Shown: positions 22,230 through 59,902 of the stretch, piece after piece
How positions within the stretch are numbered: the first letter of the stretch is position 1
Layout: the number at the start of each line of letters is the position of its first letter
Assembly (NCBI GenBank): GCA_050253255.1
Contig: JBFWJK010000001.1
Coordinates: 2,165 to 66,164 of the forward strand
DNA from: Desulfobacteraceae bacterium
GTDB taxonomy: Bacteria > Desulfobacterota > Desulfobacteria > Desulfobacterales > JACKCP01
Direction: 5' to 3'
DNA: 64,000 nt
The notes under the pieces: model-generated
Told to the model about the DNA's origin: nothing
The model's input: the letters and a program-made list of their open reading frames with translations, nothing else
Databases searched by the model: none
Made by a program: the position numbers and the translations under genes

Positions 22230-22253
22230 TATAATCTGAATTGAGAAGATAAC

Positions 22254-22841
22254 TCAATTCAGATGCTGCTCTTTTTTATACCTGAAATAGTATGAATTCA
22301 CTTTTTTTATATAATTTCTGGTTTCTGAAAACGGCGGAATTCCGTTATATCTGCTGACGTTTCCAGGTCCTGCATTATATGCTGCAAGAGCAAGATTTAC
22401 GTCGCCTTTATATATATCCAAAAGTTTTTTCAGGTATTTTGAACCGGCCATTATGTTTTCTGAAGGGTCAAAAGGGTTTTTTACCTTGTATTTTTTTATC
22501 ACCGAAGGCATCAGCTGCATCAGACCCTTTGCTCCTTTTTTTGAAACAGCATTTTTTATAAAACTTGATTCAGCTTTAATAACAGCCTTTATAAGTTCCT
22601 TTTCAACAGAAGTCACTACAGAAACGTATTTCAAAATATTGTTAAGATGAGTATCCGTAACAAAAAATCCGTATCCATCTTTTGAATCCGACTCCTTCAT
22701 GTAAAATTTATAATCAGGTGATGTCGGAGTATTTGTAAAAGACAGAATTCCGTTTTCATCCACATAAACATAAATATCCGAATATGCCTGTGAATAAATT
22801 ATCAACATAAAAAAAACAATAAAATACAAACACTTAACCAT
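22254..22841 (-). CDS. Lytic transglycosylase (SLT domain)
   Basis: 195 aa. Signal peptide, then ESSF...[10 protein letters not shown]...[13 protein letters not shown] catalytic motifs. Confidence 0.85.
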
Positions 22842-22865: not shown

Positions 22866-25800
22866 TCAGAAAAACTTTAGCTGATTATCCCTTTTTACAC
22901 TATTTTTAATAATATTTTTAACAGTTTTTTTATTTTTCAGATTATCTTCTAGATCATTTAAAAAAACCGAAGGAGAAGTTTTTTCAGTTTTACCGAAAAA
23001 TTTAATCTGACCGGGTCTTAAAACATAAAGTCTTTGTTTTGCTCTGGTAAGACCTACATAAAAAAGTCTTCTTTCTTCATCTGATTTTTCTGACTCACCA
23101 TTTTTTATAAAAGGAATATTTCCGTTAAAACAGTTCGGAATAAAAACAGCTTCAAATTCAAGTCCTTTTGAAGCATGAAGAGTCATAAGCCTCACCTTTT
23201 CACCTTTGATTCCAATATCTGATATTTTCATAAGTTTAATTTTTGTCAAAAAATCACTTATACCACTAAATTCATTAGAAAATTTAACAATATAATCAAT
23301 TTTATCCATAAACGAATAATCTTTTTTAAATTTCTCAAGATCAGTATTTTCCATAAGATAATAAATTATTTCATTAATTTTTTTGTTCTCTGCATCAACT
23401 CTTATTTTATTTAATTTATTATAAATTTTTTCATTTACTCTAATATTTTCCTCAATATTCATAATCTCATTTTTTATGTTAAAAGGTCTTAAAACAAGAT
23501 CTGAAATATCAGGCTCCCTAACAATCATTTTCAAGTATGAAAAAAGTTTTTTAAGACCTGTTTCTTCACTTAAATTTTTTTCATTAATACTGGAAAAAGG
23601 AATGGAATTTTCTTCCAGAACAGATGAAATTACAGACATTTCCTTTTTTGTTCTGCATAAAACTGCAATATCAGAAAATGAAAAACTGCTTATATCCTTG
23701 AAGTTTTTTTTGTAGGTAATTAAAGAGTCAGTTCCTCCCACAAGATTTTGAATTTCATCTGCTATAAATTTAGCCTGGAGTTTTTCAGAATCTGACACAA
23801 TAATATTTATAAATTTTTCACCTTTGATGCCGGAATAGACCTTATTTCTTTTATTTTCAGAATCAATTTTTTCTATTACCTGAAAAGAGGCATCAATGAT
23901 TGTCTCACTTGATCTGTAGTTTTTTACAAGATTAATTTTTTCAACATCTTCAAAATCTTTTGAAAACCTTGTTATAAAGTCAGTCAAAGCACCTCTGAAT
24001 CCATATACAGACTGATCAGGATCTCCTATAGCGAATACAGAAGAAGAATTGTCTGTTAATTTTTTTATTATTTCGTACTGAATTTCATTGAGATCCTGAT
24101 ATTCATCTATTAAAAAGCAATTGTATTTTTTCTTTACCAAATTTCTAAATTCTTCATTTTCATTTTTTTTGAGAAAATTTATCAAAATATCATCATAATC
24201 TATTAAATTATTTATTCTTTTTATTTGTTCATATTTACTGATTATTTCATAAAAATCGTAATCTTTTTGTATAAAAAAATCAGATGACTGTTTTATTTTT
24301 GAAAGAAAGGCTTCCACTTCAGTGTATTTTGTTGTTTCAGAGTATTTTTTACAAAGATTTTTAAGAATATATTTTTTGGAAGTATCGTCTATAATATTGA
24401 AATCATTATCTTCTTCAAAACTTAATGCAAAACTGTGAAAAGTTCCTGTAAAAGGTTTTTTATCGTATTTCCTCTTTGCTATTCTTTCCTTCATTTCATT
24501 GGCTGCCTTTACTGTAAATGTTATTGCAGCAATATTTTCGGGATTGAATTTTTCTTTTTCACAAAGATGAAAAAATCTGTTTGTAAGACATGTTGTTTTT
24601 CCGGTTCCAGGACCTGCGGTTACGACAATATTTTTTGATTTTGAAGTAACAGCCTTTAACTGCTGGGTGTTAAGTTCTTTATTTTCAGTAATTTCTTTTT
24701 TTTCATCTTTTTTTTCATTGAAAAGATTTTTTGCTTTTGAAAAATGATCTTCATTTTTTTTATATTCAAAAACTTTTGAATCTTTATTTATTTTTTTGAA
24801 AAAGCTTTTCTGTCCTTTTGAAAGAAATGAATCCAGCTCCTTTTCATCGAAAATTTTTACCTTTCCAAATTCTCCGTCATATCCCGGGCTGATATTTAAA
24901 TTTTTATTTCTCATTCTTGATATTGCTTCAGATAAAAGAGGAATATCTGTCCTGTCCAGAATTTCCTTTTCACAGTTCCACAGAGCATCAAATTCTGAGC
25001 CTGCTTCTTTTATAACCTTTTCATAAAGAGACTGAACCTTTTTTGTATTGGGACCTGTTTTTGATATTTCTGACAATATATCTGTAAGAGGGACAATGCT
25101 CTTAAATGAAGGCGAGTCAATTTTTATCTGTTCAATATCCTTTCTGTCTGAAAGTTCAATTATCCTGTAATAAACACCAAGAGTTAGATTTTTACCGCAT
25201 ACAGGACAAATTCCCTTATTTTTTAATGTTTCCATCGGAGAAAGGCATATATTGCATTTTCTGTGGCCGTCAAAATGATATTTTCCCTCTTCAGGAAAAA
25301 ACTCATAGGTTCCCTTAAACCTGCTTTTATCCTTGTTTTTAAGAGCATTTTTCATTTCAAAAAAAGACATTTCACAGTCAAAAATATTTGCTTCTCTTCC
25401 AAGTTTTCCGGGTGAATGTGCATCGGAATTTGAAATAAGACTGTATTTATCGAGATCAGAAATAAAAAAATTCATGTCCGGGTCAGAAGAAAGTCCTGTT
25501 TCGAGAGCAAAAATTTCTGAGCTAAGATCTTCGTAGCATTCTTCTATTTTATCAAAGCCCGATTTTGATCCGAACAGCGAAAACCATGGAGTCCATATAT
25601 GTGCAGGAACAAGAAAACCCCTTTCATCTGTTTCAAGTACTATTTCAAGAAGATCCCTTGAATCAAGGCCAAGTATAGGCCTTCCGTCTGATTTTATGTT
25701 TCCTATTGCATCCAGTTTTGAATTGAATTTTTTCACTGATTCAAGTGACGGAAAATATACGAGGTTGTGAATTTTTCTTACTTTTCCGTTTTTTTTGTAA

Positions 25801-26093
25801 ATAGAGCTTATTTCAGCCTGAAGCATAAATCTTATTGTATGGTTAAAAGATTTGTTAACTTCATCCTTTAAATTTTTTTCAATATCTTTTTTTAATACAA
25901 AAAGACCTGAAGATTTATCCTCCAAAAGTTTTGATTCGAGCTCCTCAAACCATGCAGGATGTGTAAAATCACCTGTTCCGACAACGTTTATCCCTTTTTT
26001 TGAAGCATAAATATAATTTGTTTCAAGATCGGAATTTTTTGCTGTCGCCATTGAATATTTTGAATGTATGTGAAGATCTGCCAGAAATTTCAT
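22866..26093 (-). CDS. PHP-domain (endonuclease Q / TIGR00375-like) nuclease fused to a UvrD/PcrA-type SF1 helicase
   Basis: 1075 aa. aa 1-415 carry PHP motifs (DLHIHSKYS, GTGDFTHP, SNSDAHSP), a Zn ribbon (CNIC...CPVCG) and GYDGEFGKV. aa ~480-1060 carry helicase motifs: Walker A AGPGTGKT (aa 494-500), IDEYQD, MTLHASKGLEF and YVGLTRAKQRL. Confidence 0.85.
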   Translation of the reverse strand: MKFLADLHIHSKYSMATAKNSDLETNYIYASKKGINVVGTGDFTHPAWFEELESKLLEDKSSGLFVLKKDIEKNLKDEVNKSFNHTIRFMLQAEISSIYKKNGKVRKIHNLVYFPSLESVKKFNSKLDAIGNIKSDGRPILGLDSRDLLEIVLETDERGFLVPAHIWTPWFSLFGSKSGFDKIEECYEDLSSEIFALETGLSSDPDMNFFISDLDKYSLISNSDAHSPGKLGREANIFDCEMSFFEMKNALKNKDKSRFKGTYEFFPEEGKYHFDGHRKCNICLSPMETLKNKGICPVCGKNLTLGVYYRIIELSDRKDIEQIKIDSPSFKSIVPLTDILSEISKTGPNTKKVQSLYEKVIKEAGSEFDALWNCEKEILDRTDIPLLSEAISRMRNKNLNISPGYDGEFGKVKIFDEKELDSFLSKGQKSFFKKINKDSKVFEYKKNEDHFSKAKNLFNEKKDEKKEITENKELNTQQLKAVTSKSKNIVVTAGPGTGKTTCLTNRFFHLCEKEKFNPENIAAITFTVKAANEMKERIAKRKYDKKPFTGTFHSFALSFEEDNDFNIIDDTSKKYILKNLCKKYSETTKYTEVEAFLSKIKQSSDFFIQKDYDFYEIISKYEQIKRINNLIDYDDILINFLKKNENEEFRNLVKKKYNCFLIDEYQDLNEIQYEIIKKLTDNSSSVFAIGDPDQSVYGFRGALTDFITRFSKDFEDVEKINLVKNYRSSETIIDASFQVIEKIDSENKRNKVYSGIKGEKFINIIVSDSEKLQAKFIADEIQNLVGGTDSLITYKKNFKDISSFSFSDIAVLCRTKKEMSVISSVLEENSIPFSSINEKNLSEETGLKKLFSYLKMIVREPDISDLVLRPFNIKNEIMNIEENIRVNEKIYNKLNKIRVDAENKKINEIIYYLMENTDLEKFKKDYSFMDKIDYIVKFSNEFSGISDFLTKIKLMKISDIGIKGEKVRLMTLHASKGLEFEAVFIPNCFNGNIPFIKNGESEKSDEERRLFYVGLTRAKQRLYVLRPGQIKFFGKTEKTSPSVFLNDLEDNLKNKKTVKNIIKNSVKRDNQLKFF

Positions 26094-26140
26094 ATTATTA
26101 TTGCCTTATAAGCCTGTTATTATATATTCTTAATGTTTGT

Positions 26141-26211
26141 ACCTAAATTGGGTGTTTCATATTTTTAAATAGAAATTTTTTCAATTATTCAAGGTCTTTA
26201 TATTTAAAAAT
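26141..26211 (+). repeat. Copy b of the recurring intergenic element
   Basis: 55/71 ungapped identities with 62614-62684 by hand alignment, including a 25-nt core with two mismatches. It lies in the divergent region between the PHP-UvrD and RdgC-like genes. Confidence 0.55.
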
Positions 26212-26265
26212 CACTCAGTTCAGGCTGTGTCTAATAATCGTACTCACCTGTAAAAGGAGTTAACC

Positions 26266-26886
26266 ATGGGTCTTCTAACCTCAACATCTTCCTTTTTAAG
26301 ATATAAGATTGATGATGAATCACAAGAACTTTCTTTGGAAAAAATAAGACTCTGTCTTAAAGAAAACCAGTTTCCAGAAATTGCAGATTCAGAAATATCA
26401 GAACCTGTTTCAGGATGGACAAGCTATGAAAATCATTTTGATCCAGACTTTGAATCAGACCATATAAAATATGGGAATTATATAGTTTTCTGTTTAAGAA
26501 TAGATAAAAAATCAGTTCCTAAAAAAATAATTGACAAACACATGGTCCTTGAATCAAAAAAAATAATGCAGGAAACAAACAAGGATTATCTTTCAAAAAA
26601 TGAAAAAAGAAAATTAAAAGAAGATATTCTTTTAAGACTGAGCCTTCAGATGCCTTCTGTTCCGGACGTTTATGATGTTTTATGGATGCCTGAAAAAAAG
26701 GAGGTTATTTTTTTTACCACCCAGAAGAGCGTTAATGAAATTTTTGAAACACTTTTCAGACTTACATTCAAAACTTCAATTGTTCGTCTTTTCCCATACA
26801 CAAGGGTTTATTTCGATGACGGTATTTCTGATGTTAAAAAAGATTTATTTTACTCTTCATCACATATAAATATTCAGGAGTCTTAA
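26266..26886 (+). CDS. RdgC-like recombination-associated protein, N-terminal part
   Basis: 206 aa. Recalled co-linear similarity to the E. coli RdgC N-terminal two thirds (FLRYKI / GWTS / CLRIDKKSVPKKII...KLKEDILLRL...IFFTTQKSVNEIFETLFRLTF). It ends at TAA 26884-26886. Confidence 0.6.
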   Translation: MGLLTSTSSFLRYKIDDESQELSLEKIRLCLKENQFPEIADSEISEPVSGWTSYENHFDPDFESDHIKYGNYIVFCLRIDKKSVPKKIIDKHMVLESKKIMQETNKDYLSKNEKRKLKEDILLRLSLQMPSVPDVYDVLWMPEKKEVIFFTTQKSVNEIFETLFRLTFKTSIVRLFPYTRVYFDDGISDVKKDLFYSSSHINIQES

Positions 26887-27429
26887 ATGATAGATATTGC
26901 TGTTGCATACAACAAATACAAATTTGCAGGTTTTGAATTTTTGACATGGCTCTGGTTTGTAACTGAAACAAAACCTGGAATAATTGAAGATATTTCACCT
27001 GAAATTAAAGATTTCTCTATAAATGATAAAATTGTAATTGAAAATTTCAAAGAGGATTCAACAGAAAAAATAACTATAAACGGTGACAAGGCCAACCTTG
27101 ATGAAGGAATCCTTGCAATCAAGAAAGGAGCTCTTGTTACAGAGCTTAAAATTATTTTTAAGACAGGAGATGATATTGAGGTAAAATCTCTTATAAAAGG
27201 TGAAAGTCTCGATATTTCAGGATTCAATGTTTTAAAATACAAATTTTCAACTGCACCTGAGGAAATTGAAGGATCTGTGATTGAAAAGGTATACTTTTTA
27301 GAGTTATTGACAAACCTTGTTGATAAACTTTTCCAGAAATTCATTTTACTAAGAATTTCAGACGAATGGAAAAATGGTGAATTGTCAAAAATAAGTCAGT
27401 GGATTGAAAAAAGAACCGGTAGTTATTGA
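26887..27429 (+). CDS. RdgC-like protein, C-terminal part (separate ORF, same frame as upstream ORF)
   Basis: 180 aa. The ATG directly follows the upstream TAA, in frame. GFEFLTWLWF and later blocks loosely resemble the RdgC C-terminal third. Weaker call. Confidence 0.45.
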   Translation: MIDIAVAYNKYKFAGFEFLTWLWFVTETKPGIIEDISPEIKDFSINDKIVIENFKEDSTEKITINGDKANLDEGILAIKKGALVTELKIIFKTGDDIEVKSLIKGESLDISGFNVLKYKFSTAPEEIEGSVIEKVYFLELLTNLVDKLFQKFILLRISDEWKNGELSKISQWIEKRTGSY

Positions 27430-27560: not shown

Positions 27561-28682
27561 ATGAAAATAAAAATAGAAAAGAACAGAATAAAAAAGGTAC
27601 TTGAAAAAATACAGGGAATGACAAGTCAGAAAACTTCTCTTCAGATAACAAAAAATGTAATTATAGAAACTGTCTCTGATAAGGAAATTTCTGTTAAAGC
27701 AACTGATCTTACATCTGAATATTTCTGTACTATGGAAGCTGAAGTTGAAACTAAAGGTGTAATTGCAGTTAACTCAAAAAAATTTTTTGATATTGTCAAA
27801 TATTTTCCCGAAGATTTTATTCCTGTTGAAGAAATTGATTTTCAATGGATTAAAATTGGAACAGAAGATGTTTTTTTTCATCTGGTTGGAGCATCACCTG
27901 AAGATTTTCCAGGCATATCTTTGAAATTTGATTCTGATTTTTTTGAAACAGATTCAGTTTCATTTAAAAAAATGATTGGAGCAGGAAATTCAATACATCC
28001 TGAGGCAAATGAGCTGAGATCATTTATTTTGGGTATAAATATTTCTTTTTTAAACATGGATAACTCCTCCTCTCTTAAGATGTTTTCCACAGATACAAAA
28101 AGAATTGTAAAAACAGAAATTAGAAGTGAATCTTTAATCCCTGATGAACTTAATTCAAAATCAGTTCTTCTTCCTAAAAAAGTTATTCCTGATTTGATAA
28201 AATTTATTGACGAAGAAAAGGTAAAAATAAGTTTTACACCTGAATTATTAACTGTTAATCAGGATAGAGAATTTTATTCTGTCAATCTTCTTGAAGGAGA
28301 TTTTCCTGACTGCAGCGGTCTTATAGTTCCCGATGAACAGTATGGAATAGAAATAGATAAATATATTTTAAACGATATTCTTCAGAGGGTATCTATAGTT
28401 GCTGATGATAAGACCCCTATCGTTTTTTTTAAATTTTCAGACAATACTCTTACAATAGCCTCCAGCAACCCCGAACTTGGCGAAGCAAAAGAATCAACCG
28501 GAATAGTTTTCGAAAGAGAAGGTTTTGAAACAGCTTTCAATGCAAGATATATTCTGGATATACTGAAGGATATTCAGGATGATTCCATAATACTTTATTT
28601 GAAAAATAAAGATACTCATTGTATTATTAAGGGCTTGGAAAATACAGATTATGCAGCGGCCATAATGCCCATAAAAATTTAA
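27561..28682 (+). CDS. dnaN: DNA polymerase III beta sliding clamp
   Basis: 373 aa with three-domain clamp length and pattern (ITKNVIIET..., LLEGDFPD, NARYILDILK, AAIMPIK). Confidence 0.93.
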   Translation: MKIKIEKNRIKKVLEKIQGMTSQKTSLQITKNVIIETVSDKEISVKATDLTSEYFCTMEAEVETKGVIAVNSKKFFDIVKYFPEDFIPVEEIDFQWIKIGTEDVFFHLVGASPEDFPGISLKFDSDFFETDSVSFKKMIGAGNSIHPEANELRSFILGINISFLNMDNSSSLKMFSTDTKRIVKTEIRSESLIPDELNSKSVLLPKKVIPDLIKFIDEEKVKISFTPELLTVNQDREFYSVNLLEGDFPDCSGLIVPDEQYGIEIDKYILNDILQRVSIVADDKTPIVFFKFSDNTLTIASSNPELGEAKESTGIVFEREGFETAFNARYILDILKDIQDDSIILYLKNKDTHCIIKGLENTDYAAAIMPIKI

Positions 28683-28699: not shown

Positions 28700-31135
28700 A
28701 TGTCCGAGTCAAAAAGAGAATATAACGCAGGAAGTATAAAAATACTTGAAGGTCTTGAAGCTGTAAGGAAGAGGCCTTCAATGTATATTGGTAATACAGA
28801 TGAGCCAGGTCTTCATCATCTGGTATATGAAGTTGTGGACAACAGTATAGATGAGGCAATGGCAGGATACTGCACTGATATAGATATTAAAATTCACACA
28901 GACAACAGTGTCACAGTAACAGACAACGGAAGAGGAATTCCTGTTGATCTTCATGAAAAGGAAGGTGTTCCTGCTGCAGAAGTTGTTCTTACAAAACTTC
29001 ACGCCGGAGGAAAATTTGATAATGACACATACAAGGTGTCAGGAGGTCTTCACGGGGTGGGTATTTCAGTTGTTAATGCTCTTTCTGAAAACCTTGACAT
29101 GACTATCTGGAAAAACGGAAACATATATAATCAGAAATTTTCCAAAGGTAAAAAAATCACTGAGCTTGAAATTATTGGTTCAACTGATCAAAACGGTACA
29201 AAAATTCATTTTTCTCCGGACATAACCATAATGTCCACCAATAATTTCAACTATGAAGTTCTGTCAAGAAGAATGAGGGAATTAGCCTTTCTTAACAAGG
29301 GAATAAAAATTTCCATTGAAGATGAAAGATCAGATGAAAAAAACAGTTTCATGTACGAAGGCGGAATTAAGACCTATGTCGAGTTTTTGAATAAACACTG
29401 CTCTGCCATTCATGATCCGATAATTATAGAAGGAACTGATGAAGATGTTTTTGTAGAGGTGGCAATTCAGTATAATGATACTTTCAACGAAAAAATCTAT
29501 ACTTTTGCAAACAATATCAATACTTCTGAAGGAGGATATCATTTAAGCGGATTTAAAGGTGCTCTTACAAGAACCTTGAATAATTATGCAAACAGCGACA
29601 GTCTTCCAAAAAATCAGAGAACCAAAATATCAGGGGATGATGTAAGGGAAGGACTTTCTGCAGTAATAAGTGTAAAACTCAAAGAGCCGAAATTTGAAGG
29701 CCAGACAAAAACAAAACTTGGAAACAGTGAAGTAAAGGGTATTGTAGAATCTCTTGTAAATGAAAAACTTGCAATCTATCTTGAAGAAAATCCTTCAAAT
29801 GCAAGAAAAATTATTGCAAAGGCTGTTGAGGCTGCAAGAGCAAGGGATGCTGCAAAAAGAGCAAGAGACCTTGCAAGAAGCAAGTCAAATATAGGAGACA
29901 CGACTCTTCCTGGAAAGCTTGCTGATTGTCAGTCCAACAAACCTGAAGAAAAAGAACTTTATCTTGTTGAGGGTGATTCTGCCGGAGGTTCTGCAAAGCA
30001 GGCAAGAGACAGAAGATTTCAGGCTATCCTTCCCCTTAAAGGAAAAATATTGAATGTTGAAAAAGCCAGGTTTGACAAGCTTTTAAAATCAGATGAAATA
30101 AAAAACATGATTACAGCCCTTGGAGCCGGCATAGGAAGAGACGATTATGAAATTGAAAAAATAAGATATCATAAAATTTTCATAATGACTGACGCCGATG
30201 TTGACGGTGCTCATATAAGAACTCTTCTTTTAACCTTTTTTTACAGACATATGCCTGAAATAATTGAAAATGGATATCTGTATATAGCTCAGCCTCCTCT
30301 CTACAGAATAGGCAAAGGGAAAAAGGGAATCTATCTCAAGAATGAATCAGGATTCAACGAATATCTTGTATCAAGATTCTGTGAATTCAAATATGTTGAA
30401 TCAGGAGAAGAAAACAAAAAACTTGAAGACAGTGAAGTCTTTGAATTTCTTCTAAAACTTATAAGCCTTTACGAAAACCTTTTATCTCTCGATAACATGG
30501 GATTTGAAAAAAGAATTGTTAAAATTCTTCTTGATGAAAAGGTTTCTGACAAAGACTATCTGAAAGATGAAGAGAAAATGAGTCTTTTAAGGGATAAGTT
30601 TGAGGAAAACAATTTTGTTATTGATGAATTTATCTGGAATGAAGAAAAGGATATTTTTGAACTGACTCTTACACCGCCTGAAGTTGAAGAAGATCATGAA
30701 TCAGAAGAGTCTTCAAGAGTAAGAGAAAAAAAACCGGTAAGAATTTCAAGAAGACTTGTTTTTTCAAAGGAATATCAGAGTATCCTGTCAGACTGGAGCA
30801 TAATTGAAAAATATTATCATCTCCCTTTTTATATAGGAACAAAGGAGGGAACTTCTGTTGTAAAATGTGAGACTTTAAGGGAATTTTACAACAAGGCAAT
30901 GGAAGAAGCCAAAAAAGGAGTATCAATTCAGAGATACAAGGGTCTTGGTGAAATGAACCCTGATCAGCTGTGGGAAACTACAATGGATCCTTCTACAAGA
31001 CAGCTTCTGCAGGTAAGAATAGAAGATGCGGAGGCTGCTGATGAAATTTTTTCTCTTCTTATGGGTGATGAAGTCGAACCCAGAAGAAATTTTATTAAAA
31101 CACATGCTTTGGAAGTGTCTACCCTGGACTTTTAG
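28700..31135 (+). CDS. gyrB: DNA gyrase subunit B
   Basis: 811 aa. [61 protein letters not shown] and [11 protein letters not shown] motifs. Confidence 0.97.
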
Positions 31136-51613: not shown

Positions 51614-52510
51614 TTATTCCTGAAAAAGATTTGTTCTTGCAAGATTTCTGACCGCAAGAACAGCAGGGTGCTTAAGACGCCGCTCATGCGAGACAGCGAA
51701 AAATTTTATGGTTTCAACCCTTGAGCTTCCTAAGACCATAACCCCGTACTGTCTGACAACTTCCTCTGCAATTACAGACGGAACCGGAAAAACCCCAAGC
51801 CCTGAATGTCCAAAAGCCTTAAGAAGAGAAGTGTCTTCAAATTCTGCAACAATTTTGGGTCTGAGCTGATTTTTTGAAAGCCACTGGTTTACAACAGCTC
51901 TTAAAGATGTTCCTTCTGAGGGCATAAGGAAAGGTGCGTTTTGAAGTGATTGCGGAAAATTTTCCTTTAAAGCTTTGTAAAGAGAAGGACTAGCGCAAAA
52001 ACTCACACCTGACTGCCCCAGCTCATGATTGTAAGCCTTTACTCCAAGTTCCCTGGGCAGAGTCTGATCTGCAATTACAAGGTCAAGATGATGAATTGCA
52101 AGCTCGCCGAAAAGCCGGTCAGGCTTGTCATTATGGCAGATAAGCCGGATTGGCTCTGAAAGATTAACTGCTGCACTCAGCAGCTGATATGCCATGGATT
52201 TTGGAACAGTATCCACAACTCCGACTCTGAAAAAAAAACCTTCACTTACAGCACCGTCCCTTACAAGAACTTCTATTTCATTGCCTATCTGAAAGATGTC
52301 ATCGGCACGGGATAAAACAACTTCGCCCGCCTGTGTAAGTTCAAGCCTTTTCCCTACCCTTCTGAAAAGATGGGTATCCAGTGATTTTTCCAGTTCACCA
52401 ACCTGGTGACTGATAGTCTGGGGAGTTATATTGAGCCGTTCGGAAGCGCGGATTACTCCCCCTGATTTAACGACATTCCAGAAATAATAAAGCTGTTTGT
52501 AGTTTAACAT
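51614..52510 (-). CDS. LysR-family transcriptional regulator
   Basis: 298 aa. HTH N-terminus LNYKQLYYFWNVVKSGGVIRASERLNITPQTISHQVGELE plus the LysR substrate-binding domain. It is divergent from purE. Confidence 0.9.
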   Translation of the reverse strand: MLNYKQLYYFWNVVKSGGVIRASERLNITPQTISHQVGELEKSLDTHLFRRVGKRLELTQAGEVVLSRADDIFQIGNEIEVLVRDGAVSEGFFFRVGVVDTVPKSMAYQLLSAAVNLSEPIRLICHNDKPDRLFGELAIHHLDLVIADQTLPRELGVKAYNHELGQSGVSFCASPSLYKALKENFPQSLQNAPFLMPSEGTSLRAVVNQWLSKNQLRPKIVAEFEDTSLLKAFGHSGLGVFPVPSVIAEEVVRQYGVMVLGSSRVETIKFFAVSHERRLKHPAVLAVRNLARTNLFQE

Positions 52511-52714
52511 TTTGTGAACCCGTTAGTAATTATCAGTTTATATCGAACAATATATCAAAATAATACGACTTTTATTTTATATTGGCAAGGTGTATAAAAA
52601 TTTTCTCAAAACCTAAGAATGCTAATAAACAAGGTATACAGCATTTTAAAAGCTGAATGTCGAAAAATATCGAAAAGACATGAAACTTATTATCAGTACA
52701 ATGAAAGGATTGAG

Positions 52715-53410
52715 ATGGAGTTAATTGTCATAGTTTTAATTTATGGATCAGCAGCTTTATTTTTAAGTTCAAATCTCTGTCTTTCTGCCGTTTTAAGCGG
52801 CATATCAAAGTCTGAAAGCTTTTCATGCGGGTGCGGCTCTTCCGGAACCGAAAAAAAGGATATGAAACCATCCCCGGAACAGGAAATGCCGGCCTGCATG
52901 AAAAACTCAAATACAAAGACCCCACTGGTTGGAATAATCATGGGTTCCAGATCAGACTGGGAAACAATGATCCACGCTGCCAAAACACTTGAAAAGCTCG
53001 GTATTTCCCATGAAGTGGAAATTGTTTCAGCACACCGGACTCCTGACAGACTTTTTTCCTATGTGGAATCTGCGGAAGAAAGAGGAATGGATATCATTAT
53101 TGCAGGTGCAGGCGGTGCAGCCCATCTGCCGGGTATGGCTGCATCAAAATGCATTCTTCCTGTACTTGGAGTGCCCGTTCAGTCAAAGGCTTTGAATGGG
53201 ATGGATTCCCTTTTGTCCATAGTGCAGATGCCGGCCGGAATTCCAGTTGGAACTCTTGCAATAGGAAGAGCCGGAGCTGTGAATGCAGCTCTTCTTGCTG
53301 CAGGCATGCTTGGAAGATTTTATCCGGAAATTCGTCAGTCTCTTATTGATTACAGGAAAAATCAAACCGAGGAAGTACTGGCACAAAGTGATCCTGGAAG
53401 GGATTACTGA
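52715..53410 (+). CDS. purE: N5-carboxyaminoimidazole ribonucleotide mutase (class I PurE), start uncertain
   Basis: The core [13 protein letters not shown]...[11 protein letters not shown]...[16 protein letters not shown]...VLGVPV...[17 protein letters not shown] is nearly co-linear with E. coli PurE. The frame is open back to 52619. Candidate starts are 52715 (best RBS, GAAAGGA), 52862, 52886 and 52898. Confidence 0.85.
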
Positions 53411-54498
53411 TGAAAACAGGTATACTTGGCGGAGGCCAGCTTGCAGGAATGCTTGTCATGGCAGGAATACCCCTTGGGTTTGATTTTACAGTACTTGCAC
53501 CGGACAGCGAGTCCTGCGCAGCACAGTATGGAAAACTGCTGCGGTCAGATTACAGTGATAAAAAGGCTCTGCATGATCTGGCGGACTGGTCTGATCTGAT
53601 AACCTTTGAGTTTGAAAATATTCCGGCTGAGTCAATAAATTATCTTGAGCGGTATACTATTGTACGCCCTGGGCTAAAAGCACTCAAGACGGCCCAGGAC
53701 AGACTCCATGAAAAAGAATTTTTTTCCGGTCTTGGAATACCCTGTGTACCTTTTTATCCGGTAAACTCTCTAAAAGATCTTTATAAGGCTGCTGATATAA
53801 TTGGACTTCCTGCAGTATTAAAATGCCGCACCCATGGATATGACGGAAAAGGTCAGATTGTTTTACGTCATATTGAAGAATCTGAATCAGCCTTTAATCT
53901 TCTTGGCGGTCAGCCGGGAATTCTTGAAAAGCTTATTGATTTTGACAGAGAGATTTCAGTTGTTGCTGCCCGGAGCATATCCGGGGAAACAGCTTTCTAC
54001 ACTATATCAGAAAACATTCATCATAATGGAATTCTTCGTCTTGCCATGAGTCATCCTTGTGATCCTGTTCAGTCAAGGGCTGAATTCTATGCCGGACTTC
54101 TGCTGGAGAAGCTCAATTATGCAGGAGTGCTGGCTCTTGAATTTTTTCAGACTGGAGACAGTCTGATTGCAAATGAATACGCTCCAAGGGTTCATAATTC
54201 AGGACACTGGACCATAGAAGGAGCAAAGACAAGTCAGTTTGAAAATCATTTAAGGGCCATATCAGGGATGCGCCTTGGCTCAACAGCTCTGAAGAGTGTT
54301 GCAGCCACTGTAAACCTTATTGGTTCTGTTCCGGATAGAGCACAGATACCTGGAAACAGCAATATTTATCTGCATGATTACGGCAAGGCCCCAAGACCAG
54401 GTAGGAAAGTGGGCCATATCACTGTATGTGCAGACAACATGAGGGATCTTGGTAAGCTTGTGCCGGAATTTTTAATCCGGCAGGAACTGATGAAGTGA
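53410..54498 (+). CDS. purK: N5-carboxyaminoimidazole ribonucleotide synthase (ATP-grasp)
   Basis: 362 aa. GILGGGQLAGML N-terminus, ATP-grasp core (GYDGKGQ), and NEYAPRVHNSGHWTIEG. Its start overlaps the purE stop (TGATG). Confidence 0.9.
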   Translation: MKTGILGGGQLAGMLVMAGIPLGFDFTVLAPDSESCAAQYGKLLRSDYSDKKALHDLADWSDLITFEFENIPAESINYLERYTIVRPGLKALKTAQDRLHEKEFFSGLGIPCVPFYPVNSLKDLYKAADIIGLPAVLKCRTHGYDGKGQIVLRHIEESESAFNLLGGQPGILEKLIDFDREISVVAARSISGETAFYTISENIHHNGILRLAMSHPCDPVQSRAEFYAGLLLEKLNYAGVLALEFFQTGDSLIANEYAPRVHNSGHWTIEGAKTSQFENHLRAISGMRLGSTALKSVAATVNLIGSVPDRAQIPGNSNIYLHDYGKAPRPGRKVGHITVCADNMRDLGKLVPEFLIRQELMK

Positions 54499-54549
54499 TT
54501 GTTTTTTCCTGAATTGGTCATAATCAGAATTTTAAAAAGGAGGAGATGG

Positions 54550-55134
54550 ATGAGAGATTCAACTTACAAGGTAGCTGCAGGACCGGAAGGTTACTTACCG
54601 CCTGCTGCCGCTGTAATGGGTGTTGAGCTTCCCGACCCGGGACAGGCTATTATGGAAGGTGAGTGTGTTGATCAGGATACTGCCATGAAGGCAATAGCCA
54701 GCAAGCTTGTTTCTGCTGAAAATCCGGTTTTTTTCCCGGGCCCGCTTATTTTATGGGACTGGAAACCCGGTGTAGCGGAAAAGGCGGCGGCACTTAAAGC
54801 TCTTGCCGAAGCAGTGGGTGCGAAGATGATACCTATGCCAGATTATCGGCCAAAATATCCGATGATTAATCCTGCTATTGAAGTCAATCCGAATCATCCG
54901 AACCTGACAATAGTCCATAACAAGATAGATGTATGCCTGTTTATTGGTGTTCACTGTCATTACGCAAACATTGCATTGAAGATAATCAGGGGAGGAACAG
55001 ACTGCTATACAATTGCGGTTTGTGCCGAGGCAGGTCATGAGGAAGCCATGATATCACTGCGTGACGCAGGTATCTGTGAACTTCAGCGTTTGCGTGAACT
55101 TGTAATTGAACTGAAAGGCGGGATGAGCAGATGA
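54550..55134 (+). CDS. Unknown ~194-aa protein translationally coupled to the OFOR alpha gene (possible extra OFOR subunit)
   Basis: ATG at 54550 is preceded by AGGAGG, and the stop overlaps the alpha-subunit ATG (ATGA 55131-55134). From memory it loosely resembles CdhB (ACS/CODH epsilon)-type or DHS-like folds (ENPVFFPGP...DVCLFIGVHCHY). Unverified. Confidence 0.5.
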   Translation: MRDSTYKVAAGPEGYLPPAAAVMGVELPDPGQAIMEGECVDQDTAMKAIASKLVSAENPVFFPGPLILWDWKPGVAEKAAALKALAEAVGAKMIPMPDYRPKYPMINPAIEVNPNHPNLTIVHNKIDVCLFIGVHCHYANIALKIIRGGTDCYTIAVCAEAGHEEAMISLRDAGICELQRLRELVIELKGGMSR

Positions 55135-56270
55135 TAGAACAGAAAATTGTCGATCCGGATTACCTTTTTTTTGAGGCGCAAAGAACAAGTCAGTACATTA
55201 CCGGAAGTGAGGCTGTGAGAGAAGCTATAAAAAGAGCCAATGTGGATATGGCCATAGCCTATCCAATCACTCCCCAGTCTGAAAGCATGCATCTGGTTGG
55301 AGACATTTATGCAGAAGGCTATGTAAAGGAATATTTGAGAGGTGAAAACGAGTTTGCAGTAATGTCGGCTGTTGCAGGTGCATCAATGGCAGGAGTGAGG
55401 GTTTTCACGGCAACAGGAGGTCCGGGAACCATGAGGGCCTTTGAAGTATTTCCAACCTGGGCAGGAGCAAGGCTTCCTGTTGTATGTGCCTTCATGACCC
55501 GGGGAATCAACTCTCCTCTTACAATTCAGCCTGACACCATTGAAATGGCATATCTCCTTGAGACAGGTATTTTAATGCTCCATGCTGAAAATGCACAGGA
55601 TCTGCATGATATGCTTTTAATGGCCTTTATGGTGGCTGAAAAAACAGACGTGCATATTCCTGTGGGAGTGTTTGCAGACGGTTTTTTTGTAACCCATACA
55701 AGGGACAGGGTTGATATTCTTCCTGAGGACGTAAAGCTTCCGGGATATGATCCTTATACAGCCCCGGTTCCTGTCATGGATATGGAAAATGTTCCTGTAA
55801 GACAGATGCGCGATCCCTTTGTAATGAAGAGTAACTTCATGAGCTATGCCTGTCATGCTTCCTGGCAGCAGGAGATAGATGCGGCAGCAGAACGCTCACG
55901 TAAATACCTGAGACAGTATCTTGGCTCTCTTATAGATGTTGAAAATGAGGACTCAGACATCCTTGTCATAACTTCTGGTACAGCAGTGAGCCAGAGTCGT
56001 GAAGCCATAATTACAGCCCGTGAACAGGGACTTGATGCGGGTCTTGTGAAGATAAAAACAATACGCCCTTTCCCGGGAGAAGAAATTCGCGCTCTTGCAT
56101 CAAAGGCAAAGAAAATAATTGTACCCGAATTCAACAGGGCAGGCTGGCTTGCAAAGGAAATCCGCAATGTTATAGACGAACCCCGCAAGGTTGTCGGTGC
56201 ACCAAGAGTTTTCGGAGGAATGACAATGCCGCCGGAGCTTATACTCGATGAAATAAGGAGGATCAGATAA
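55131..56270 (+). CDS. 2-oxoacid:ferredoxin oxidoreductase alpha subunit
   Basis: 379 aa. GSEAV...AIAYPITPQSE...FTATGGPGT motifs of Por/Vor/Kor alpha subunits. Confidence 0.9.
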   Translation: MIEQKIVDPDYLFFEAQRTSQYITGSEAVREAIKRANVDMAIAYPITPQSESMHLVGDIYAEGYVKEYLRGENEFAVMSAVAGASMAGVRVFTATGGPGTMRAFEVFPTWAGARLPVVCAFMTRGINSPLTIQPDTIEMAYLLETGILMLHAENAQDLHDMLLMAFMVAEKTDVHIPVGVFADGFFVTHTRDRVDILPEDVKLPGYDPYTAPVPVMDMENVPVRQMRDPFVMKSNFMSYACHASWQQEIDAAAERSRKYLRQYLGSLIDVENEDSDILVITSGTAVSQSREAIITAREQGLDAGLVKIKTIRPFPGEEIRALASKAKKIIVPEFNRAGWLAKEIRNVIDEPRKVVGAPRVFGGMTMPPELILDEIRRIR

Positions 56271-57124
56271 TGAAAACCGGAATGCTTAAAATATCTCCGG
56301 GATTTGAGGATATCATGCCTGAGGAATACCGGGAACTTGTGGACAACGGTCCCTACGGTAAAAACTACGGCATAGGTGATCTTGGATCTTTCAAGGAGCT
56401 TCTTGAAGAACATCCCCTTTGTGCAGGCTGCGGCCTTGCCCTTTCCTTAAGACTTACACTTGCTTCACTTCCCATGCCTGAAGAAACCGTGATTGTAGGT
56501 TCAACAGGATGCAGTGCCCTTGCCTTTCCACAGGTGGCCCTTCACAATATTCATTCTCTGTTTGGTAACCAGAATGCTGTTGCTACCGGAGTGAAGCGTG
56601 CCTTAAAGCTTCGTTTCCCGGACAAGGAAAAAGATGTGGTTGTTATTGCAGGAGACGGAGCCACGGCAGACATAGGTCTTGATATGGTTATGCAGTCCTG
56701 GCTGAGAAGGGAGAACATCACCACAATAATGCTTGATAATGAGGCCTATGCAAACACAGGCGGTCAGGAAAGCGGAATGTCCATGCCTGGAACCGTTCTT
56801 AATATGGCGCCAACCGGTAAAAAATTTCCCAAGCTTTCCCTTCCTGAAATTGCACATACTTCAGGCTGTGACTATGTAGCAGCAGTTTCACCTGCAAAGC
56901 CAAAACAGCTTGCAAAGGCTGTCAGGCGTGCAATTCTTGTGGCCCGTAAAATCGGACCCACCTATGTACAGATATTCAGCCCGTGTCCGACAAATTACAA
57001 GTTAAACCCCAAAGAAACCGTTTCTGTAATCAGACAGAGGGAAAAAGACGGCCTTTATCAGACAAAAGAGTTTGTATCAGAGGAAGCACAGGCATTTCTC
57101 AATACTGTTGAGGAGAAAAAATGA
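56270..57124 (+). CDS. 2-oxoacid:ferredoxin oxidoreductase beta (TPP-binding) subunit
   Basis: 284 aa. CAGCG, GSTGCS and the TPP motif IAGDGATADIGLD...LDNEAYANTGGQ. The start overlaps the alpha stop (TAATG). Confidence 0.9.
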   Translation: MKTGMLKISPGFEDIMPEEYRELVDNGPYGKNYGIGDLGSFKELLEEHPLCAGCGLALSLRLTLASLPMPEETVIVGSTGCSALAFPQVALHNIHSLFGNQNAVATGVKRALKLRFPDKEKDVVVIAGDGATADIGLDMVMQSWLRRENITTIMLDNEAYANTGGQESGMSMPGTVLNMAPTGKKFPKLSLPEIAHTSGCDYVAAVSPAKPKQLAKAVRRAILVARKIGPTYVQIFSPCPTNYKLNPKETVSVIRQREKDGLYQTKEFVSEEAQAFLNTVEEKK

Positions 57125-57810
57125 AATCAATAGAAAAAAACTTTATACGTATGTCCGGCCTTGGAGGCCAGGGTGCAGTGACAGCGGCACATATACTTGG
57201 AAGCGCAGCCAATAAAGACGGACTGGAAAGTACTGTCAATCCCTTTTTCGGTGCTGAAAAGCGTCTTGCTCCTGCGGAAAGTTATGTGCGCATATCTTCA
57301 CAAAAGGTTTATGAAAAGGGAGAGGTGCTTTATCCCAATACAATAATGATTTTTCATCCCCATGTCATCACCATGGGCAAGTGCTACACCATGCCTTTTT
57401 TTGACGGTCTTCAGGAAGGCGGAGTTCTGCTTATAAATTCTGATGAACCGCTTTCTCTTCGTGATGAGGATCTCAGACTTCTTGCAGATCTGAAAGCAAA
57501 AATCTACTACGTGCCTGCAACAAAAATTGCAACCGAAGTTGCAGGATCAGAGCTTTCTACAAACATAGCAATGCTTGGAGGACTTTACGGTATAAAAAAA
57601 CTTACCTCGATTAAATCTCTTAAAGAATCCATGATGGAGCGTTTTGGCGGAGGAAAGTTTGTAGCTTCGGGAAGTACAGCAGCTCTTGATGATGCAGTAA
57701 AGGGAAAATTTGCAAAGGTAAGTCAGATGATTGAGAAAAATATGGAGCTGATTGAAGCAGCAGGCGCGGCTTTGACTGAGTTTTGCCCAGCAGAAGAAAA
57801 GGAGGACTGA
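57121..57810 (+). CDS. 2-oxoacid:ferredoxin oxidoreductase gamma subunit
   Basis: 229 aa. GLGGQGAVTAAHILGSAA, typical of gamma subunits. The start overlaps the beta stop (ATGA). Confidence 0.85.
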   Translation: MKSIEKNFIRMSGLGGQGAVTAAHILGSAANKDGLESTVNPFFGAEKRLAPAESYVRISSQKVYEKGEVLYPNTIMIFHPHVITMGKCYTMPFFDGLQEGGVLLINSDEPLSLRDEDLRLLADLKAKIYYVPATKIATEVAGSELSTNIAMLGGLYGIKKLTSIKSLKESMMERFGGGKFVASGSTAALDDAVKGKFAKVSQMIEKNMELIEAAGAALTEFCPAEEKED

Positions 57811-57813
57811 TTT

Positions 57814-58002
57814 ATGTATTTATCAGCCAGAGTTGATAAAGAAAAGTGTATTGGATGCAGACTTTGCATTACAAGTTGTCCGGAACCCAATGTATTTAAA
57901 TTTCTGCCGGAAGAAAAGCTTGTGGAAGTAAATGACAGCCGATGCAAGGCATGCGGTCTGTGCACCACAGTTTGTCCAAAGGACGCCCTGAAAATCAGCT
58001 GA
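57814..58002 (+). CDS. 2-oxoacid:ferredoxin oxidoreductase delta subunit (2x[4Fe-4S] ferredoxin)
   Basis: 62 aa. CIGCRLCITSCP and CKACGLCTTVCP. It starts 3 nt after the gamma stop. Confidence 0.8.
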   Translation: MYLSARVDKEKCIGCRLCITSCPEPNVFKFLPEEKLVEVNDSRCKACGLCTTVCPKDALKIS

Positions 58003-58038
58003 TCAGTCAGTTTATAAGTGTGTTTTTATTTGTTCCGG

Positions 58039-58058
58039 GGGCGGCACTGATGCCGCCC
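58039..58058 (+). terminator. GC-rich hairpin between the two OFOR gene sets (weak terminator)
   Basis: GGGCGGCA (58039-58046) pairs with TGCCGCCC (58051-58058). Only TT follows. Confidence 0.35.
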
Positions 58059-58127
58059 TTCAAAAATTTGAATGCACATTAATTTAATGCTGCTTTTATA
58101 AGTGCAGCTGGGGTTAGGAGACTCAAC

Positions 58128-59297: not shown

Positions 59298-59893
59298 TAA
59301 TGTCAAAAAAAATAATAACTCCGGTCCCTTCTCTGGCAGATATTCTGCCTGATGATTACAAGGCTCTTGTATCAGACGGTCCACACGGCAGATCTCTTGG
59401 AGTCAAAGATCTTGGAAGCTTCAAGGAAATTACCGAGGAACACCCCCACTGTGCAGGATGCGGTGTGTCCTTAGGTGTGCGTCTTTGTCTGGCTTCACTT
59501 CCTTTACCTGAGGATACAATAGTTGTCGGCACTCCAGGGTGCTCATTTTTTGCATTGTCACAGTCTGCTCTGAATTATTCAAATACTGCTTTCGGCAATC
59601 AGAACTCGGTTGCATCAGGTCTTAAGCGAATGCTGAAGATCCGCTATCCGGAAAGAATAAAGGACGTTGTTGTCATTGCCGGAGACGGAGGCATAGCTGA
59701 TATCGGTCTTGACATGACCCTTCATTCCTGGCTGAGAAAAGAAAATATTACAACCATAATGCTTGATAATGAGGTTTACGGAAATACCGGCGGTCAGGAA
59801 AGCGGAATGTCACCCCATGGTCAGGTTCTGAACATGGCTCCAAAGGGTAAAAACTTTGAAAAGATTCCCATGTTTGAAATGGCAAAGACATCT

Positions 59894-59902
59894 GGCTGCG
59901 CC
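59894..59902. repeat. Left copy of the 9-bp target-site duplication GGCTGCGCC
   Basis: Identical 9-mer immediately flanks both IS ends (59894-59902 and 62320-62328). Confidence 0.85.

Follow-up and report, generated by a model that had tools for sequence, protein, structure and literature searches.

A single-chain fusion of an EndoQ-like nuclease and a UvrD-like helicase, with putative clamp-binding motifs, in a Desulfobacteraceae bacterium

A 64,000-nucleotide stretch of DNA from a Desulfobacteraceae bacterium, referred to here as the window, raises the question of whether a nuclease resembling endonuclease Q (EndoQ) and a helicase of the UvrD/PcrA type are truly joined in one protein, and what such a protein might do. 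Analysis of the open reading frames of the window revealed a complete CDS at 22866..26093 on the minus strand, which is one uninterrupted ATG-to-stop ORF of 1075 aa plus the stop codon and encodes an EndoQ-like nuclease, a linker, a UvrD-like helicase and a tail with a clamp-binding-type motif. A frameshift, a chimeric assembly or read-through of two genes might have produced such a fusion artificially, and the modules are indeed split as adjacent ORFs in two of 80 related loci (L052 and L023), but an independent contig carries the identical 1075-aa protein, each of the best 120 database matches (40–97% identity) spans 98–100% of the query, the N-terminus agrees with those of the homologues, and 59 of the best 80 genome loci have the same architecture in one ORF of at least 950 aa, which together rule out an artefact and leave it a practically negligible probability. 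The single polypeptide that a sequence-only reading had described, with no artificial join, is therefore confirmed, at the level of the predicted protein, as one chain that joins an EndoQ-like nuclease to a UvrD-like helicase.

The AF2 model of this chain consists of two confident modules separated by a disordered linker and followed by a disordered tail, in a beads-on-a-string arrangement whose inter-domain geometry is without confident prediction (pTM 0.55). The Lys/Glu-rich linker noted earlier is present at about aa 418–472 (24678..24842, minus strand); it comprises ~55 residues in the query and 48–77 aa across the family, is poorly conserved, and has stretches with pLDDT below 50 (aa 428–451, 453–455 and 461–470). 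When the query was compared with distant members, the EndoQ module, the helicase and the linker showed 59%, 34% and 21% identity, respectively, and the alignments indicate that purifying selection acts on both modules and not on the linker.

Does the N-terminal module represent an EndoQ, or a generic PHP phosphoesterase? For aa 1–417 (24843..26093, minus strand), the NCBIfam model TIGR00375 matched aa 6–412 over model positions 3–374 of 374, with a score of 193.3 bits against a curated cut-off of 326.6; a score below the cut-off with the whole model covered is what a divergent bacterial subfamily outside the seed group would be expected to give. A phmmer comparison with the PDB aligned aa 5–417 with residues 5–385 of PfuEndoQ (E 1e-49; chains 5zb8, 7k30 and 7k31), running through the PHP, Zn-binding and C-terminal helical domains, and a Foldseek comparison of the predicted fold gave TM-scores of 0.87 with 5zb8 and 0.86 with 7k30, a complex with dU-DNA. 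The PfuEndoQ chains are the only credible PDB matches: just three others reach E≤1 (E 0.19–0.68), all three being unrelated proteins outside the PHP enzymes, and neither Pol X nor histidinol-phosphatase is represented in this range. A generic PHP phosphoesterase is thus ruled out by EndoQ being the sole PHP enzyme among these matches, and the earlier placement of the domain with EndoQ/TIGR00375 is upheld by the PDB matches, the end-to-end TIGR00375 alignment and a set of invariant residues. As judged from sequence and predicted fold, aa 1–417 is a bona fide EndoQ.

The PHP motifs on which that placement had drawn are all present (HIHSKYS at aa 8–14, GDFTHP at 41–46 and SDAHSP at 223–228), as is the GYDGEFG block at aa 404–410. 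In PfuEndoQ, the metal ligands are His8, His10, Glu76, His84, His139 and Asp193, and mutations at H8, H10, E76, H84, H139, D193, W144, G169 and L170 abolish or reduce activity (PMC5961232). The equivalents of these activity-critical residues, including the PHP Zn ligands H8, H10, E94, H109, H165 and D224, are invariant in 119–120 of 120 fused homologues. All lesion-pocket and wedge residues are likewise invariant in 119–120 of the 120 homologues, namely T168, W170, E198, G200, L201, S202 and N222, whose counterparts in PfuEndoQ are Thr142, Trp144, Glu167, Gly169, Leu170, Ser171 and Asn191, while K351, the counterpart of the DNA-binding K320 of PfuEndoQ, is conserved in 118 of 120, and PfuEndoQ Leu168, which makes a main-chain contact, is replaced by an invariant Thr. 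The claim of a CxxC...CxxC zinc ribbon stood in part: CNIC and CPVC do occur at aa 280–283 and 296–299, but the ligands of the family are H277, C280, C296 and C299, all of them invariant, and C283 of the query is found in just 54 of 120 homologues. The fused homologues are thus predicted to carry an H-C-C-C variant of the PfuEndoQ C4 site (Cys249, Cys252, Cys268 and Cys271), in which an invariant His takes the place of the first Cys.

Overall, the query shares the PHP, Zn-binding and C-terminal helical domains with the known EndoQ proteins (PfuEndoQ PF1551, TkoEndoQ, MacEndoQ and Bacillus pumilus EndoQ; PDB 5zb8 and 7k30–7k33), is identical to them in Zn ligands, lesion pocket, wedge Trp and DNA-binding Lys, and also appears to have a clamp-docking-type motif after the helical domain. 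It differs in being only ~31% identical to PfuEndoQ, in the His at the first Zn-finger position, and in a chain that goes on into a 600-aa helicase and a second clamp motif.

The second module, aa 473–1040 (22974..24677, minus strand), is an SF1A helicase of the UvrD/PcrA/Rep type, with Pfam matches to UvrD-helicase at 474–714 (E 8e-60) and UvrD_C at 880–1024 (E 1e-39). The earlier description of an SF1 helicase region with all motifs is borne out by these matches and by motif conservation: motifs Q, I (AGPGTGKT, 493–500), Ia (523–534), II (DEYQD, 663–667, of the DExQD form), III (690–702), IV (NYRS, 725–728), V (971–980) and VI (1007–1019) are present, and conserved in about 120 of 120 homologues. 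The closest solved relatives are PcrA, Rep and UvrD, and Foldseek aligned the model over ~650 columns with the UvrD-DNA complexes 2is4 and 2is6 (TMt 0.78–0.80, rmsd 3.8 A); this near-complete coverage of the UvrD chains implies that the four subdomains 1A, 1B, 2A and 2B, taken together, are all represented in the predicted structure. The NCBIfam equivalog scores are far below their cut-offs for PcrA (289 vs 911 bits), Rep (266 vs 951) and UvrD (254 vs 1144), which places the helicase in a separate subfamily, and polarity and loading at nicks are for this reason assumed from the superfamily. The query thus keeps all SF1 motifs and aligns with full UvrD chains, whereas it differs from UvrD, PcrA and Rep in ~35 aa after the helicase core, in which Pfam, NCBIfam and AF2 detected no additional domain and which end in a clamp motif, and in being covalently preceded by its own nicking enzyme, UvrD being recruited by UvrB/UvrC or MutL.

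QL[S/D]LF or QxxLF is the established beta-clamp-binding consensus (PMC12309361), and archaeal EndoQ has a C-terminal PIP box that binds PCNA, which stimulates EndoQ (PMC4858679). The fused protein has only two conserved Qxx[LF]F sites, at aa 428 and aa 1071. The C-terminal one, QLKFF (aa 1071–1075; 22869..22883, minus strand), ends a basic tail that is predicted to be disordered (AF2 pLDDT below 50); it is present in 120 of 120 homologues by the general Qxx[LF]F pattern, and the stricter Q[LM]x[LFM]F falls within the last 10 residues in 114 of 120, exactly at the C-terminus in 102, with 0 matches elsewhere in the 133,867 residues of the homologues. The internal motif, QKSFF (aa 428–432; 24798..24812, minus strand), lies in a predicted disordered region, has the family consensus GQKxLF (97 of 120 homologues), and directly follows the EndoQ module at a spacing similar to that of the clamp motif in the short bacterial EndoQs listed in 2016. 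By analogy with these systems, both motifs would attach the protein to DnaN, the beta sliding clamp, and the sequences suggest that clamp docking is common to archaeal EndoQ, through the PIP box, and bacterial EndoQ, through Qxx[LF]F. Neither motif had been mentioned in the sequence-only reading.

How widespread is this architecture? Close relatives of the EndoQ domain were found in at least 600 species-representative genomes from many phyla, and 129 of 149 representative clusters of close relatives are at least 940 aa long; in addition, among the 80 closest genomic relatives there are 11 for which neither the ORF nor the surrounding DNA examined encodes a helicase. These helicase-less relatives sit scattered inside the fused clade, which indicates that the helicase is evidently not an obligatory companion of the nuclease. 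Members of the family are annotated merely as "UvrD-helicase domain-containing protein". Earlier, Shiraishi et al. (2016; Sci Rep, Suppl. Fig. S1) had listed ~36 bacterial "EndoQ homologs" of 945–1244 aa with a C-terminal clamp motif, including Desulfobacter curvatus WP_020586011 and Geobacter metallireducens WP_004512662, and the helicase of these long homologs goes unmentioned in the parts of that text available to us. The query matches them in length class, in the C-terminal QLxLF and in phyla, and differs in nothing essential, these homologs having been catalogued by sequence only; from length, motif and taxa, it very likely belongs to them, and one of the two families described for bacterial EndoQ by Shiraishi et al. 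(2017) is probably the counterpart of this group. The sequence-only reading was unaware that long bacterial homologues were already listed in the EndoQ literature. Their presence in the 2016 list lowers the novelty of the protein, which is a typical member of a catalogued, uncharacterised family and represents a confirmation rather than a discovery. Our literature search found no biochemical or genetic work on any fused member, in agreement with the earlier remark that no biochemical characterisation of such a fusion was known to that reader.

The genomic context of the fusion gene is lineage-specific. Downstream, an SLT-domain lytic transglycosylase gene (22254..22841, minus strand) starts 24 nt past the stop codon and is probably co-transcribed with the fusion gene, and a bidirectional terminator-like hairpin lies at 22234–22264; this gene adjacency occurs in only part of the Desulfobacterales (8 loci including the window). 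The divergent neighbours, all on the plus strand, are an RdgC-like gene (26266–26886), an unknown 180-aa gene (26887–27429), dnaN (27561–28682) and gyrB (28700–31135), an order that recurs in 9 other Desulfobacterales-type loci (10 with the window). The strand-switch position beside RdgC-like genes and dnaN was therefore correctly recognised from the sequence, with a divergent RdgC-like pair followed by dnaN and gyrB. The neighbours of the fusion gene also include yhbY. Gene order revealed no functional partner conserved across phyla, just the lineage-specific dnaN–gyrB and SLT synteny. The fusion gene sits at the cumulative GC-skew minimum. A DnaA-box origin in the 172-bp divergent intergenic region was considered and rejected, with 0 DnaA-box-like sites at 26094–26265; the window as a whole contains 25 such sites vs 18.6 ± 4.2 expected and shows no enrichment, and a sigma-70 promoter scan performed no better than on shuffled sequence.

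What might the protein do? The domain identities, the intact active sites, the conserved fusion and motifs and the beads-on-a-string architecture are observed, and we propose, as a reading that we hold to be reasonably probable, that it is a self-contained repair enzyme, tethered to the clamp, that would "nick and unwind" DNA with deaminated bases or abasic sites. Its substrate range would be that of EndoQ: a rigid pocket of the EndoQ module would receive the flipped dU, dI, dX or AP site, and the PHP-bound Zn ions would cut the phosphodiester immediately 5' of the lesion, which would yield a 3'-OH and a lesion-bearing 5'-phosphate. In the order of events that we infer, the UvrD/PcrA-type SF1A helicase, tethered to the EndoQ module by the flexible linker, would then load at the nick, move 3'-to-5' on the undamaged strand and peel off the strand that begins with the lesion, a role like the one ascribed to UvrD at the 5' incision during nucleotide excision repair. 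A flap or 5' exonuclease, a polymerase and a ligase could then process the 5' flap or gap left behind. Clamp binding through both Qxx[LF]F motifs, in the way that archaeal EndoQ is anchored to PCNA by its PIP box, would bring the repair activity to replication forks or to the DNA behind them. The original EndoQ papers proposed a helicase step after incision (PMC4357722, PMC8438529), the alternative models for the events after the nick being polymerase plus flap endonuclease, or helicase. Several findings count against the proposed mechanism, namely the restriction of the dnaN link by gene order to a single bacterial order, the 11 relatives that lack a helicase, the replacement of the first Zn-finger Cys by His, the low pTM and the helicase scores below the cut-offs.

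UvrD-family motors are known protein-displacement translocases, and a different, rather unlikely reading has the helicase act as a lesion-scanning translocase, or strip the EndoQ module off its nicked product for turnover, with Pol I or a flap endonuclease removing the strand. PfuEndoQ remains bound to its own nicked product (PMC5961232), as such a role would have it, and the standalone EndoQ forms inside the fused clade indicate that a fused helicase is evidently not needed for excision. The retention of all helicase motifs and the ~650 columns aligned with UvrD-DNA unwinding complexes argue against this reading, but this evidence does not separate the two readings, since a protein that only translocates would use these motifs as well. 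It seems quite improbable that the protein instead restricts phage or other foreign DNA, with nicking and unwinding directed at phage DNA that contains uracil or is otherwise non-canonical. For Bacillus EndoQ, a role in defence has been put forward (review PMC8307549), and the high scores of the helicase part against PADLOC GajB models would fit it were these not generic UvrD models; the neighbours are housekeeping genes (dnaN, gyrB and yhbY) whose arrangement is shared across one bacterial order, and motifs of the clamp-binding type suggest a part in the replication and repair of the host. Gabija and other defence systems were rejected, the PADLOC matches being generic GajB only, with no GajA or other defence partner adjacent: GajB adjoins GajA, an OLD-family ATPase/TOPRIM nuclease, whereas the query adjoins the SLT transglycosylase, YhbY, RdgC-like genes and dnaN. 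Very improbable, finally, is an end-resection helicase-nuclease like AddA or RecB, with the PHP domain cutting unwound strands without specificity, as an exo- or endonuclease, which the SF1A helicase and nuclease on a single chain and weak matches to AddA and RecB models might recall, but these matches span the helicase core only, Pfam and NCBIfam show no PD-(D/E)xK nuclease domain, and the nuclease is N-terminal with a complete EndoQ lesion pocket, Zn-binding and duplex-clamping helical domains.

A protein that nicks at a lesion and unwinds from the nick while tethered to the clamp, as we propose, would resemble MutL plus UvrD in mismatch repair and UvrC plus UvrD in nucleotide excision repair, in that a dedicated nick is followed by SF1A unwinding, and by analogy with MutL the beta clamp would serve as the platform. 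In contrast to these systems, the query fuses the components, its sensor would be a base-flipping PHP nuclease, and its nuclease is not homologous to theirs. AddA, RecB and AdnAB also combine an SF1A motor and a nuclease within one chain, whereas their nuclease is a C-terminal PD-(D/E)xK domain acting on unwound ends and that of the query is an N-terminal PHP domain, predicted to be lesion-specific.

The conserved covalent fusion of EndoQ-type and UvrD-type modules provides a "Rosetta stone" argument for unwinding as the step after the nick. More tentatively, and with some doubt, the fused protein may be an autonomous replication-coupled machine, in which the two clamp motifs engage both protomers of a beta clamp loaded on DNA and the orientation of the clamp directs unwinding of the lesion strand from the EndoQ nick. 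If true, this would reveal the step downstream of EndoQ incision, and for deaminated bases bacteria would have a counterpart of MutL plus UvrD in a single polypeptide. As the fused form outnumbers the short forms (129 of the 149 clusters), it could be the predominant mode of EndoQ in nature, and because the family is large and its annotation generic, one biochemical study would re-annotate thousands of genes. Such biochemistry would also establish a further way of carrying out excision repair in sulfate reducers, Geobacter, Myxococcota, Planctomycetota, Bacteroidota and other groups.

The gene at 22866-26093 (-) is one ATG-to-stop ORF of 1075 aa, so that the single polypeptide described in the sequence-only reading is confirmed, and the motifs quoted there were all found where it had placed them. 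TIGR00375 of NCBIfam matches aa 6-412 along positions 3-374 of the 374-position model (193 bits, E 8e-57), and Pfam places UvrD-helicase at aa 474-714 (E 8e-60) and UvrD_C further downstream (E 1e-39, best stretch aa 880-1024); the PcrA, Rep, and UvrD models of NCBIfam match over the C-terminal part. The domain-level interpretation, an EndoQ-like nuclease joined to a UvrD-like helicase, is correct and the finding is real. A frameshift or assembly error joining two genes is ruled out by an independent contig (Logan SRR27751818) that encodes an identical 1075-aa protein and, after it, the same SLT-domain lytic transglycosylase and YhbY genes, and by full-length homologs: all 120 best database matches are 1055-1162 aa long, cover 98-100% of the query, and are 40-97% identical to it.

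With the EndoQ domain alone as query, species-representative genomes gave at least 600 matches, and among the 80 best loci 59 carry a single ORF of at least 950 aa that includes the helicase, which further upholds the fusion. In eight more, the ORF runs on into the helicase but is truncated, mostly by a contig end; in two, the modules are adjacent ORFs; and in 11, a helicase is absent from both the ORF and the surrounding DNA covered. Similarly, a HMMER search with aa 1-418 returned 1022 clusters (50% identity) at E<=1e-30, and 129 of the 149 best cluster representatives are at least 940 aa long. The family spans many phyla; outside Desulfobacterota, the genome scan found EndoQ-domain matches in Planctomycetota, Bacteroidota, Chloroflexota, Gemmatimonadota, Myxococcota, Spirochaetota, Fibrobacterota, Acidobacteriota, Melainabacteria, and others. 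In a neighbor-joining tree of EndoQ domains, helicase-less forms are scattered within the fused clade beside fused sisters (for example, helicase-less locus L015 at a distance of 0.12 from fused locus L004), which suggests that the helicase was lost secondarily and repeatedly. Two helicase-less loci from Desulfobacteraceae genomes, L013 (8001-9299) and L042, have EndoQ genes of 432-441 aa that adjoin the dnaN-gyrB cluster just as the window gene does, followed in L013 by the same SLT gene; both proteins lack the terminal clamp motif described below. All-against-all clustering of the 80 loci also returned "conserved" ORFs of 107-214 aa antisense to the fusion gene in 17-36 loci; these are shadow ORFs, as the gene opposite them is strongly conserved, and they show no sign of being genes.

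[quoted passage not shown] Unrelated proteins account for the remaining three matches at E<=1 (E 0.19-0.68), and Pol X, histidinol phosphatase, and all other PHP enzymes are absent at this threshold; with PfuEndoQ as the sole PHP enzyme matched, and the TIGR00375 model covered nearly end to end, a generic PHP enzyme is ruled out. In an alignment of the 120 full-length homologs with PfuEndoQ, the Zn ligands (PfuEndoQ H8, H10, E76, H84, H139, and D193), the PHP-motif residue H195, and the pocket and wedge residues T142, W144, E167, G169, L170, S171, and N191 are invariant in 119-120 of 120, and the K320 equivalent is kept in 118; mutating these residues lowers or abolishes the activity or DNA binding of PfuEndoQ (PMC5961232). 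Two differences from PfuEndoQ were observed: Thr invariably replaces L168, which makes a main-chain contact, in the fused homologs, and the first Zn-finger Cys, C249, is a His in 120/120 (the His-to-Cys stretch lies at 25254-25263, aa 277-280), which predicts an H-C-C-C site. The zinc ribbon proposed earlier as CxxC...CxxC is present in the window protein, but its first CxxC is partly fortuitous, as C283 occurs in just 54 of the 120 homologs.

The full set of SF1 motifs claimed for the C-terminal part (Walker A AGPGTGKT, Ia, DEYQD, III, IV, V, and VI) is present and kept in ~120/120 homologs. The closest solved proteins are PcrA (1e-57), Rep, and UvrD; scores far under the NCBIfam equivalog cut-offs for all three indicate, at the level of sequence, a distinct UvrD-like subfamily that is not the canonical UvrD or PcrA of the cell. 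PADLOC gave generic GajB (UvrD) matches alone, with no partner gene nearby.

Two clamp-binding-type motifs, neither of them in the sequence-only reading, are conserved in the family. Q[LM]x[LFM]F occurs in the last 10 residues of 114/120 homologs (exactly C-terminal in 102; QLKFF in the window protein) and nowhere else in their 133,867 residues, and GQKxLF directly follows the EndoQ module in 97/120 (QKSFF, aa 428-432, in the window protein); the general pattern Qxx[LFM]F has just these two conserved sites per protein. The established beta-clamp-binding motif is QL[S/D]LF, more broadly QxxLF (PMC12309361). In an AlphaFold2 model from a 72-sequence alignment (mean pLDDT 82.7, pTM 0.55), both modules fold confidently and match PfuEndoQ (TM 0.87) and UvrD-DNA complexes (TM 0.78-0.80), and pLDDT falls below 50 in the linker (428-451, 453-455, and 461-470) and the tail (1059-1075), so that both motifs are predicted to sit in low-confidence, disordered segments.

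Archaeal EndoQ binds PCNA via a C-terminal PIP box and is stimulated thereby (Shiraishi et al., 2016; PMC4858679). The same study noted that bacterial homologs carry beta-clamp consensus motifs at their C-termini, and the terminal motif is therefore not new. Its Suppl. Fig. S1 shows ~36 bacterial proteins, 945-1244 aa long, that end in QLxLF (including those of Desulfobacter curvatus, Desulfobacterium autotrophicum, Geobacter metallireducens, Caldilinea, Rhodothermus, and Sorangium) and ~10 short proteins of 405-464 aa (e.g., Thermodesulfatator, QKSLF at 421-425), whose motif lies, by position, roughly as far from the EndoQ module as the internal motif of the fused proteins does. As EndoQs were also sorted "based on the domain organization", giving one archaeal family and two bacterial ones, according to Miyazono et al. 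(2018; PMC5961232, citing Shiraishi et al., 2017), the long form has been catalogued since 2015-2017. The accessible texts of the EndoQ literature do not name the helicase.

The cut made by EndoQ lies immediately 5' of the lesion, and the enzyme remains on the product (PMC4357722; PMC5961232). In the fused enzyme, the EndoQ module would make this nick and the SF1A motor would start there, moving 3'-5' on the intact strand and so 5'-to-3' with respect to the damaged strand, which would displace the strand with the lesion at its 5' end. In nucleotide excision repair, UvrD is generally accepted to act with the same geometry once the 5' incision has been made. The flexible linker of 48-77 aa would permit direct hand-off, and the clamp motifs would give recruitment and perhaps orientation. 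We consider it reasonably probable that the fused enzyme nicks at a lesion and then displaces the damaged strand, recruited by the clamp; a helicase step was proposed earlier for archaeal EndoQ pathways (PMC4357722; PMC8438529). The main alternative, that the motor works in scanning for lesions or in releasing the product and not in excision, appears unlikely.

The SLT gene (22254-22841 (-)) begins 24 nt past the fusion gene and is followed by a terminator-like hairpin. On the other side, as noted earlier, the strand switches: the divergent neighbors are two small genes (26266-27429 (+)), the first (206 aa) with a weak RdgC match (E 1.6e-7) and the second (180 aa) with no Pfam or PADLOC match, then dnaN (27561-28682) and gyrB. 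This order recurs in nine other loci (10 with the window), all Desulfobacterales-type, and in no other phylum among the loci compared; it probably reflects inherited synteny and not function. The small-gene pair itself is found, apart from the window, in nine Desulfobacterales-type loci, and wherever the flank is covered it lies upstream of dnaN-gyrB. The cumulative GC-skew minimum (~26000) coincides with the strand switch in the divergent intergenic region; DnaA boxes form no cluster (25 near-matches in 64 kb, 18.6 expected), and no dnaA gene lies beside dnaN in the window. Elsewhere, G+C is 43-46% at 52000-60000 vs. ~28-35% around the fusion gene; this segment includes purE- and purK-like genes and two 2-oxoacid:ferredoxin oxidoreductase alpha-like genes, and the shift may reflect gene content or horizontal acquisition. 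At the edge of this block, a 725-aa ORF (60089-62266 (-)) with Pfam DruA (Druantia) and Tnp_DNA_bind matches may encode a transposase-related or defense-related protein. No tRNA genes or Rfam families were detected at threshold across 1-64000.

The large bacterial family to which the window protein belongs, as an ordinary member, is catalogued but not characterized by experiment; consistent with the sequence-only reading, whose author knew of no biochemical characterization, the literature searched contained no biochemistry or genetics of the fused enzyme. The fusion is neither a new kind of system nor new to the EndoQ field, but it points usefully to the downstream step of EndoQ repair, and the fused enzyme is an easy target for biochemistry.
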